Source: a virus (taxonomy: Duplodnaviria; Heunggongvirae; Uroviricota; Caudoviricetes). From it: a DNA stretch of 57,943 nt. The position numbers were made by a program. The stretch spans positions 1-57,943 of IMG/VR virus record IMGVR_UViG_643348545_000013; one strand, written 5' to 3'. This document shows positions 39,001-42,000 of this stretch, one piece after another. Positions within the stretch are counted from its first letter, which is position 1. Every line of letters starts with the position of its first letter.

Positions 39001-42000
39001 CCGTCAGCCAGCACTGACATTATCCGGCTGCTGAAGTCCACCATCACCACCAGAAACAGCAGGAGCGCAACCACAGCCAGACGCATTTTTACCGTCACAG
39101 ATGATTCTCCAGACGAAGGCCCAGGACACCGGCAATCTCTTCCAGCACCTTGCGCTCTTCCGGCTCTATTTCGCCGTCTGCTTCGGCAATGGCCACCGCC
39201 ACATCCAGCACGTCTTCCGCTTCACGCGTATCGTGTTTCACATCCTCGATCTCACGTAACGCCGCTCGACGACCAATTTTAAAGTTCGTATCCAGCTGAC
39301 CGATAATGGTTGCGCTAATCGCATTAATTTCTGACGTAAACGCGGACAACGCAGGCTGGTTACGCAAGACCTGCTCGATCTTCGCTTTCTCTGAAGCCTC
39401 ACATTCACCATCTGCATAGGCCACCAGATAGGCAGCATTAATAACCGCCTGTGCCAGATCACGTTTCTCAAACTTTTTAATTTCCACTGCCGCTCGGCGG
39501 GCTTTTTTACCAAAAATACCAAACATCGTGACGTTCCTTTGGGTGGGTGAGCCAACGCCCGGGAGCGATCTGCCCACAGAGAAAGTCACACTGACCACTC
39601 CGTAAGCTCACCCCCGAAAGGCTCTGTGGTTGATATGCGCCGGGCGTGGCGCAGATACAAAAAAAGCCCGCCGAAGCGAGCCTGATAATAAATCTGGAGC
39701 GGGTAGCGGGAATCGAACCACGATAAGAAGGTTAACAGCCTTCCGTAATGACCTTTATACGACTGACCCAAATAAAAAAAGCCACCGTTGCAACTTAAGA
39801 GTCACTAACGGCAGCTTACCCTCTAATTATGGCTAAATGGCTAATTGCATGTCAAGGCTTTTAACAGCAACATGCTTAACTTTCTCAACACGTTTACGCA
39901 TTTTGAAAGCATTTTGCATTGGTTGGTACAAAACAAATAATGACGCTTTCAGGATATCGTCAATTTCGTTTCTACAGGTTGCCAGTGAAGGTTTTCTCCA
40001 TCCCTCGCCACCGCGTCCACACATCTTGCGTGGCTTTGCAGTCGCGTGATAGTAGGATGCAATTGCTCTCTTAGATGAACCATGAGCGTAGTAGCTGAGG
40101 AGGATGCCAAAGGCTTTCTTGTCAATGTACATGACGGAATCGACGACCTGAGAAATCAACATTCCATCATCATCATTACACATTGGTCTTGTCATAACTC
40201 TTCCCGGCTCTACGCTCTCCATGAACTTCGCTATTACGCTGCTCATGCGCTTTTCCAGACGACCTGAATAACCCCATGCGCCCCACAGTTCAAGCCAGCC
40301 ATTCAGCCAATCGTGCTGTTCTTTGGTGAGGTTTAGTTCTCTTATGCCCATGCGACTTCTCCCTTGTTATCTGGAATGGTTTTTACTGAGAGCGTCATGC
40401 GGCCTCACTTCTGCTGTTTCGCAGGTCTTTGAGTTTCTGTTGGTACTCTGCCTTGATGGCCCTGCACTCTTCGACAGTCCAGCGATGGCGGTTATGGTTT
40501 GATTCGATTTCATCTACTGCTTCCTGCCCGATGCGGCTAATCAGTTCGACGCGATACGGAACGAGATTTCCGCTTTTGTGCTGGTTGCACACCACGCATT
40601 GCTTGTGAATATTGCGTTCATCAAATCGGAGTTGAGGTGCCGCAGCAGTTGTCCGGTAATGTCCGGCATCCCACTGAGCAGACGTGAGCGTTCCGCACGA
40701 GATACATGGTAAGTCGCGGTCTCTTTCTCTGATGAAGGCGTTTACGGCTTGTTGGGCTTGTTTAATCCAGTAACTGCGGGGCTTTAAGGCGAGTTTTCGA
40801 ATCTTCAGTTTATCTTTCTGTTTCTGCTCCTCTCGTCGTCGTTTCTTCTCTGCTGCTTTTTCCGCTTTTTCGCGTTCTTTACTTCGTCGTTCGAGTGCTA
40901 ATTGAGTTCCGTGTTCCGGGCAGCACCACCACTGATTTGAGAATGCCGGGTGAAACCATTCTTTGCATATTTTGCATTTCCTTCGCGCTGGTTTAGCCAT
41001 TAAGCAGCCTCCCCTGTTACTTTCAGCATTCCGTTATCGAGCAGCTTTCTGGTCAGCCACTGTTGACCACGCCCGGTGATTTTTGTGGTGAACGATATCT
41101 GTATTCCGTGATTTGTGTTGACCGCTGTTTCTTTCACTGTGAAATAGCCGCGCTCCATATATTCCTGCATTGGCACATTGCGCCGGGCACCTGAAGCAAT
41201 AAGGATTTTGTGATCGCGCATCCACGCAAACAGTTTGTTTGGACCAATTCCAACAACCTTTGCATAGTTTCCAATCAAAATTCCGCTGGCCTCGCCAACT
41301 CGATCGGCAAACTCAACTTTAGGTGCGGCAATTGCGAGCTGGTTTTCCAGTTGCATTTTCTGCTCAGCAAGATCAGCAGCAAGGCGCAACGCTTCTGGTA
41401 GCGTTTTGGGGATATTAACCGCAGTTTCTTCAAGCTCTCGCCAACGGTCAACAAGACGAGCGGTGAATTCCGGCGACAATTGGGCGACGACAATAATGCT
41501 GTCTCGCTTACCTTGTTCGCCTTCGAAGACGTAAGCCTCGACACTACGGCGCAGTCCTAAGTTATTGATTTTTTCGAAAACCTGCAATGCAGGAAGTTGA
41601 ATAACTCCAGATTTAGCCAGGCGCTCTATTGATATTTTTACGTTATCTGGACGACTCCCCACCAACTCAGCGATTTCAATGCTGGTCATTTTGATGATGC
41701 TGCTATTTATCAGCTCATTCATTGTCATGTCCTCTCATATTGAAAATTCAGCAATAAAAAACCCAGCCGAAGCTGGGTTTGTTAAGTTGTCAATTGTCAG
41801 TAGCGATGCAGTGAAGGCGGCAACTCTTTGTTCTTAAGCCTTTCCCATGCCAGAAGGTTCGTCGGCCCGTCAGGCTCATAAATATCTATATCCCGCGTGT
41901 GATTAATTAAAACGCCCCTCGCCCTCCCGATGGTATACGAGAACTCATAGCCGTAGTCGTGGCATATGCCGGAATAGCCAGACTGAATCAGTTTTAATGC

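Follow-up and report, generated by a model that had tools for sequence, protein, structure and literature searches.

A tRNA-Asn/tRNA-Gly hybrid in a phage-21-type late leader is very probably a non-functional fusion pseudogene left by a 159-bp deletion

In Stx phages (933W and its relatives), the tRNA cluster ileZ-argN-argO lies between the late promoter pR′ and stx, and tandem tRNA genes such as those of E. coli tyrT can undergo unequal crossing-over. In late leaders of the phage-21 type, Asn and Thr tRNA genes have been described downstream of the antiterminator gene Q in SfI, Sf6, ST64T, PS3 and p21 (PMC3636060), and the curated order in Sf6 is pR′, qut site, terminator tR′, tRNA-Asn and tRNA-Thr. 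A chimeric tRNA gene is also known from a rearrangement junction in Rickettsia peacockii (PMC2791219). Here, we analyzed a 57,943-nucleotide stretch of viral DNA (IMG/VR record IMGVR_UViG_643348545_000013, positions 1 to 57,943; hereafter the window), on whose minus strand a first-pass annotation had noticed a tRNA-like element at 39695-39769. Our comparison indicates that this element is very probably a non-functional fusion pseudogene of a tRNA-Asn and a tRNA-Gly gene, generated by one 159-bp deletion in an accessory tRNA array. This specific hybrid was not found in the literature, where only general precedents for chimeric tRNA genes were met; it is a new example of the chimeric tRNA genes already known at recombination junctions.

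The element shares its slot with the Asn-Thr pair of phage 21, Sf6, SfI, ST64T and BTP1, beginning 5 nt beyond tR′, with a Q gene of the phage-21 type upstream; judged by sequence and position, it fills the standard accessory-tRNA slot of such a late leader. Compared with the Asn-Thr-Gly arrays of JLK-2012 and O55:H7 prophages, the first 57 nt, the last 25 nt and the array terminator are the same in the window. However, the arrays of phage-21-type leaders have intact genes, whereas the window holds one fused gene instead of three, with unpaired stems and without a call by ARAGORN or the Prokaryotic Genome Annotation Pipeline (PGAP). The hybrid also departs from E. coli K-12 glyT, carrying the anticodon GUU rather than UCC and an unrelated 5′ acceptor strand. 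Chimeric tRNA genes of other origin (R. peacockii; organelle tRNA recombination) likewise break inside conserved tRNA sequence and join the 5′ part of one gene to the 3′ part of another. Unlike functional recombinants, the present hybrid unites different isoacceptor families that have only 7 nt in common at the junction, and for this reason its two parts are structurally incompatible. The Stx-phage cluster resembles the locus in that a Q-dependent late leader contains accessory tRNAs, with accessory genes and a nanS-like esterase gene farther downstream; it differs in tRNA identities and sequences, and its genes are intact, whereas the window has a remnant.

A 281-nt query was compared with complete E. 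coli genomes and phage records, and in several relatives it matched as two pieces. Two of these relatives, the locus of E. coli O55:H7 DEC5B (L001) and that of Escherichia phage JLK-2012 (L002), served for the detailed comparison, in which the following features were delineated.

39769..39695, minus strand: tRNA-like element, 75 nt, sequence GGGUCAGUCGUAUAAAGGUCAUUACGGAAGGCUGUUAACCUUCUUAUCGUGGUUCGAUUCCCGCUACCCGCUCCA
39713..39769, minus strand: hybrid nt 1-57, the 5′ part of the phage tRNA-Asn(GUU), 57/57 identical to tRNA-Asn of DEC5B, JLK-2012 and Sf6
39695..39719, minus strand: hybrid nt 51-75, the 3′ part of a glyT-like phage tRNA-Gly(UCC), 25/25 identical to tRNA-Gly of DEC5B and JLK-2012
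39713..39719, minus strand: deletion junction, heptamer GGTTCGA, the 7-nt overlap of the Asn-identical and Gly-identical parts
DEC5B locus, genes annotated after Q: tRNA-Asn, tRNA-Gly
JLK-2012 locus, genes annotated after Q: tRNA-Asn, tRNA-Thr, tRNA-Gly

The Asn-derived part spans the 5′ acceptor strand, D-arm, anticodon arm, variable loop, 5′ T-stem strand and the start of the T-loop, and the Gly-derived part spans the T-loop, 3′ T-stem strand, 3′ acceptor strand, U73 and CCA; the heptamer in which they overlap is common to the T-loops of tRNA-Asn and tRNA-Gly. A three-way alignment of the window with the two relatives was invariant from the tR′ hairpin to "CTTCTTATCGT", contained one 159-column gap in the window, and was again invariant from "GGTTCGATTCCCGCTACCCGCTCCA" through the downstream terminator. 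The starts of the Asn and Gly genes lie exactly 159 nt apart in both relatives, where ARAGORN calls an intact tRNA-Asn and an intact tRNA-Gly, and BLAST placed the window in colinearity with JLK-2012 and DEC5B on both sides of the junction. The exact parent matches, the GGTTCGA overlap, the 159-nt spacing and the clean gap thus argue for a single deletion that ran from the T-loop of the Asn gene to that of the Gly gene, and this internal deletion left no intact tRNA gene at the locus. The reverse course, in which the intact arrays would have been derived from the hybrid by insertion, appears implausible from the sequences, because both parents have compensated stems.

The layout of the element agrees with the first-pass description: the expected parts of a tRNA-sized molecule are all in place, comprising an intact D-arm, a GUU anticodon arm (GAAGG-CUGUUAA-CCUUC, with a 5-bp stem, a 7-nt loop, U33 and a purine at 37), a T-loop (GGUUCGAUUCC) that fits the consensus GGTTCGAnTCC, and a 3′-terminal CCA at 39695. 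The D-arm, anticodon arm and T-loop are the same as in the intact parent genes. The failure of the acceptor and T stems to pair, also reported in the first pass, was confirmed. In the register set by the CCA, 3/7 acceptor pairs are standard (G1-C71, G3-C69 and G7-U65) and 4/7 are broken, so that the 7-pair acceptor stem that a canonical tRNA has in register with discriminator and 3′ CCA is absent; likewise, just two of the five T-stem pairs are standard, the other three being broken, in place of a 5-pair T stem. These stems fail because their 5′ strands (GGGUCAG and CGUGG) come from Asn and their 3′ strands (CCCGC and UACCCGC) from Gly. A cloverleaf in canonical register accordingly has an energy of +0.5 kcal/mol in the element, compared with -19.1 kcal/mol for the parental Asn and -25.4 kcal/mol for the parental Gly. 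The encoded CCA to which the first-pass annotation had drawn attention is real, but it is that of the Gly gene, and the one acceptor pairing open to the hybrid lies in another register.

A resemblance to E. coli tRNA-Gly(UCC) had likewise been proposed for the D-arm and the 3′ 25 nt. Alignment with K-12 glyT upheld the similarity itself, with 24/25 matches over the 3′ 25 nt (U73-CCA end included) and 15/18 over nt 8-25, the D-arm region; over its full length, the phage tRNA-Gly matches K-12 glyT at 72-73/75 positions. The D-arm, however, was contributed by the phage tRNA-Asn and not by tRNA-Gly. Its likeness to glyT is a property of that phage tRNA-Asn and hence no sign of Gly ancestry for this segment of the hybrid.

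Two further observations concern the parental genes themselves. The D-arm of the phage tRNA-Asn(GUU) (window 39744-39762, minus strand; hybrid nt 8-25) is of the tRNA-Gly(UCC) type, and this tRNA-Asn also resembles tRNA-Gly at its 3′ end; on these similarities, the phage tRNA-Asn gene may have been derived from a Gly-type scaffold. In addition, the middle "tRNA-Thr" of the intact array (positions 1629-1704 of the JLK-2012 locus and 1692-1767 of the DEC5B locus), a segment deleted in the window, is itself chimeric. Its nt 1-26 are 26/26 identical to the tRNA-Thr of Sf6 and the phage-21 type, while nt 27-76 match E. coli K-12 thrU at 46/50 positions and Sf6 Thr at just 31/50, and both Sf6 Thr and thrU carry GGTAGAGCA at the switch point. 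This gene has two anticodon-stem mismatches, receives no ARAGORN call and scores 47-49 bits with Rfam. Together with the adjoining glyT-like Gly gene, the chimeric Thr gene looks, from its sequence, like part of the host thrU-(tyrU)-glyT operon captured by recombination inside conserved tRNA segments.

ARAGORN made zero tRNA calls across the whole window and found no tRNA at eight further hybrid-bearing loci, and PGAP placed no feature at the hybrid in four complete E. coli genomes, although it does annotate tRNA-Asn, tRNA-Gly and tRNA-Thr in the relatives. No predictor therefore called a canonical tRNA with correct stems, and the similarity to tRNA is strong; both results accord with the first-pass view of a remodelled tRNA. 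Among Rfam families, tRNA was the sole one to reach threshold over the element. Matches to TarB (20.4 bits against a gathering score of 80), isrB (16.1 against 35) and rsmX (15.4 against 56) stayed far below their gathering scores and were judged to be chance, being built mostly on a generic terminator hairpin. Two mechanical open reading frames also overlap the element (61 amino acids, minus strand, 39586-39771; 68 amino acids, plus strand, 39630-39836); these were dismissed because PGAP annotates no gene there and the tRNA and terminator explain all of the sequence.

The hybrid junction was unbroken in 4 of the 5426 complete E. coli genomes (SCU-104, PM4-5, LZSFT34 and EC100), in five IMG/VR viral contigs and in three metagenome contigs; an exact-junction scan of GTDB species representatives (one genome per species) returned 0 copies. 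The intact Asn...Gly array was present in 13 complete E. coli genomes, and among the matches listed, most of the remaining approximately 350 records align over the tRNA-Asn part only. Furthermore, the Q/pR′ module upstream of the hybrid is of two different types. In the window type, the upstream side is like DEC5B and Sf6 (96.9%) and the downstream side like JLK-2012 (97.0%), while another IMG/VR locus (L005) is JLK-2012-like on both sides (98.2% and 96.9%) and amounts effectively to JLK-2012 minus 159 bp. The history that would most simply explain these alignments is a deletion that happened once, with the Q module later exchanged via the conserved leader, although the deletion could also have recurred independently at the same heptamer. 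Exact-match scans of IMG/VR for a Thr-5′/Gly-3′ junction and for an Asn-5′/Thr-3′ junction both returned 0 matches and thus gave no evidence for recurrence of this type of deletion.

Several points weigh against regarding the element as a non-functional fusion. The Rfam tRNA model (RF00005) matches 39700-39769 of the minus strand with 32.6 bits, above its gathering score of 29 (E = 4.8e-05 in local search). The element can also be drawn in a shifted register, with a 6-pair acceptor stem in which C5 is bulged and CUCCA is left as a 3′ tail, and a 4-pair T stem with U50 bulged; all 18 pairs of this cloverleaf are standard, its energy is -11.3 kcal/mol, and its discriminator is G, as in the parental tRNA-Asn. 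On this modelled fold, the hybrid RNA could still show some leftover tRNA-like behaviour. Moreover, every recovered copy is identical in the element, leaving no variation to show decay or constraint, an identity that partly reflects scans requiring the exact junction, and the verdict of tRNAscan-SE was taken indirectly, from the PGAP annotation. The tRNA resemblance as such exceeds chance, given the Rfam score and the identity of both halves to real tRNA genes. Nevertheless, the parents score 53.7-55.4 bits, approximately 22 bits more than the hybrid, whose alignment to the model requires a 1-base deletion in the 3′ T-stem strand and another in the 3′ acceptor strand and stops at G39700, with CUCCA remaining as a tail. 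The parental 3′ ends are alike (CGCUGUCCCG vs CGCUACCCG), which accounts for both the marginal Rfam score and the all-standard shifted cloverleaf with its two single-base bulges. If the element were a working tRNA-Asn, it would adopt exactly this shifted, bulged fold, be cut by RNase P, trimmed to the discriminator G, supplied with CCA by the CCA-adding enzyme and charged by asparaginyl-tRNA synthetase through its GUU arm, and its D-arm, anticodon arm and shifted-register discriminator are indeed those of an intact tRNA-Asn. We consider this highly unlikely. The shifted fold lies 4.5 kcal/mol above the minimum free energy (MFE) and has an ensemble probability of approximately 3e-05; its acceptor/T coaxial helix, the part that RNase P, EF-Tu and the CCA enzyme all read, has 10 pairs and two bulges instead of 12 pairs; ARAGORN rejects every copy, PGAP leaves the hybrid unannotated in the four genomes, and the allele is rare (4/5426).

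A regulatory or decoy role has also to be weighed, in which the tRNA-like RNA, bounded by the two terminators, would, for example, serve as a processing signal of the late transcript, persist as a stable small RNA resembling a tRNA half, or sequester a tRNA-binding factor. A discrete RNA of approximately 110 nt could in principle be released between these strong terminators, the anticodon hairpin is locally stable and kept in the centroid fold, and the late region holds further small RNAs, such as STnc100 at 38664-38868. However, the element folds no more stably than its dinucleotide shuffles, with an MFE of -15.8 kcal/mol that matches their mean (z = 0.04; an equal or better fold in 102 of 200), no promoter-like site separates it from tR′ and no Rfam family other than tRNA at threshold matches it, while the copies lack the sequence variation needed for a conservation test. 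Furthermore, the terminators and both halves were inherited unchanged from the intact array, the deletion being the sole novelty. Such a role is therefore very improbable, and the non-tRNA function that the first-pass annotation had entertained found no support. More generally, the marginal Rfam score and the flanking terminators are the only positive support for either a working tRNA or a regulatory RNA, and both come from the intact array. Duplication of the 3′ end of a tRNA gene is common among integrative elements, and the Gly segment might accordingly be an att-site copy left by an element targeting tRNA-Gly, or the boundary of an inserted moron: it begins in the T-loop, a frequent crossover zone, and the downstream genes tciA and tciB resemble a mobile accessory module that a P7-like phage-plasmid likewise carries next to tRNA-Asn and tRNA-Thr. 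Yet at this place the relatives have a complete tRNA-Gly, followed by the same DNA as in the window, and neither an integrase nor extra DNA, the missing 159 bp are the only difference of the window from them, and the window contains no second copy of the Gly 3′ end and no intact tRNA, which makes this origin exceedingly unlikely. We give just as little credence to an assembly artefact, in which reads would have collapsed over the similar T-loops of neighbouring tRNA genes. The junction does fall in a short repeat common to those genes, but 7 nt is far too short for assembly collapse, the junction is carried by two different upstream Q modules, and it was recovered in 12 independent occurrences from different sources (4 finished genomes, 5 IMG/VR contigs and 3 metagenome contigs).

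The transcriptional setting of the fusion pseudogene was defined by the following features of the late leader.

39833..40351, minus strand: late antiterminator Q gene of the phage-21/Sf6 type, 172 amino acids (open reading frame; homology)
39826..39855, minus strand: late promoter pR′ (TTGACA, 18-nt spacer, CATAAT; consensus scan 11/12)
39774..39815, minus strand: late-leader terminator tR′, a long hairpin followed by U7 (fold; homologous to the annotated Sf6 tR′)
39659..39683, minus strand: second intrinsic terminator (8-bp stem 39683..39664, UUCG loop, U-run)

In E. coli SCU-104, the identical locus bears the annotation "antiterminator Q family protein", and the annotation of Sf6 gene 59 notes its similarity to phage 21 Q. 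From the 3′ end of Q across pR′ and tR′ to tRNA-Asn, the sequence shares 97-99% identity with Sf6, BTP1 and phage L, as well as with many P22-like phages, and pR′ aligns with an Sf6 feature labelled "nearly identical to phage 21 late promoter". The fold of tR′ (39822..39772) has an energy of -20.4 kcal/mol (z = -4.40) and is invariant in DEC5B and JLK-2012. The second terminator is as strong as the first-pass annotation had held (-12.3 kcal/mol, z = -3.75), but it is not the element's own, since it stands at the same place after tRNA-Gly in the intact arrays of DEC5B and JLK-2012. A consensus scan found no promoter-like site between tR′ and the element; its position thus suggests that the element would be transcribed only by Q-modified polymerase reading through tR′. 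By established Q biology, such polymerase would pass the second terminator as well and continue into the genes downstream, which are as follows.

39095-39526, minus strand: tciA (TerB family), 143 amino acids from the ATG at 39526, downstream of the element
38934-39098, minus strand: tciB (DUF3927), downstream of the element
38664-38868, minus strand: STnc100 RNA, full-length Rfam match, 137.6 bits
36060-38057, minus strand: SASA-family esterase gene, 665 amino acids, after STnc100

STnc100 sits between tciB and the esterase gene, and JLK-2012 has STnc100 at the same place. A tciA gene near tRNA-Thr and tRNA-Asn genes has been reported in a P7-like phage-plasmid (PMC5786510), and the tRNA genes and the tci block may represent a module common to P1/P7-like and lambdoid phages.

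Upstream of the leader, NinG (40395-41000, minus strand) is followed almost directly by Q (window 40351-40395); a NinI serine/threonine phosphatase gene of approximately 670 bp lies between NinG and Q in DEC5B, JLK-2012 and Sf6 and is absent from the window and from the JLK-2012-like IMG/VR locus. Matches to the C4 antisense RNA (74.4 bits) and to isrK (76.3 bits) stand side by side at window 42565-42752 on the minus strand, directly upstream of two antirepressor-type genes (41000-42510, minus strand) encoding a P22AR C-terminal domain protein and a phage antirepressor. By these matches, the C4/isrK pair and the antirepressor genes make up a P1/P7 immI-like c4-ant arrangement within a lambdoid nin region. 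Elsewhere in the window, two further matches, one to the P22-type sar antisense RNA (11024-11090, plus strand, 69.4 bits) and one to the lambda cIII thermoregulator element (50589-50647, plus strand, 88.5 bits), confirm a mosaic lambdoid/P22-like prophage.

Taken together, the comparison shows an ancestral prophage in which tRNA-Asn(GUU), a tRNA-Thr(UGU)-like gene, tRNA-Gly(UCC) and a terminator followed immediately after tR′. A single 159-bp deletion with both end points in the GGTTCGA heptamer, probably caused by replication slippage or short-homology recombination, removed tRNA-Thr entirely, together with the 3′ end of tRNA-Asn and the 5′ two-thirds of tRNA-Gly. Its product has the length of a tRNA and retains the Asn D-arm and anticodon arm, with mismatched acceptor and T helices. 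The first-pass annotation had suspected a decayed tRNA; a remodelled remnant in the pR′ leader downstream of Q is what we find, but one formed by fusion of two genes through the deletion and not by point-mutation decay of a single tRNA. The hybrid RNA would form part of the late transcript, which continues to tciA/tciB, the esterase gene and the lysis genes; it would be neither matured nor charged as a tRNA and would have no function of its own, the cost to the phage being the presumable loss of three accessory tRNAs. The hybrid is most likely, from its position and structure, a non-functional passenger of the Q-dependent late transcript. There is only a slim chance that its RNA is cut from that transcript and persists, as a bulged tRNA-Asn-like or a tRNA-half-like species, and affects translation or tRNA-targeting host defences in lytic growth.

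The hybrid sits at the decision threshold of covariance-model annotation, and other threshold Rfam tRNA matches in prophages may also be hybrids. It further offers a marker allele with which recombination among late regions of the phage-21 type can be followed. It also shows how lambdoid late-leader tRNA arrays get lost, through a deletion that joins neighbouring tRNA genes at their near-universal T-loop sequences, and the chimeric tRNA-Thr of the intact relatives agrees with the view that conserved tRNA segments serve as recombination points in this module.

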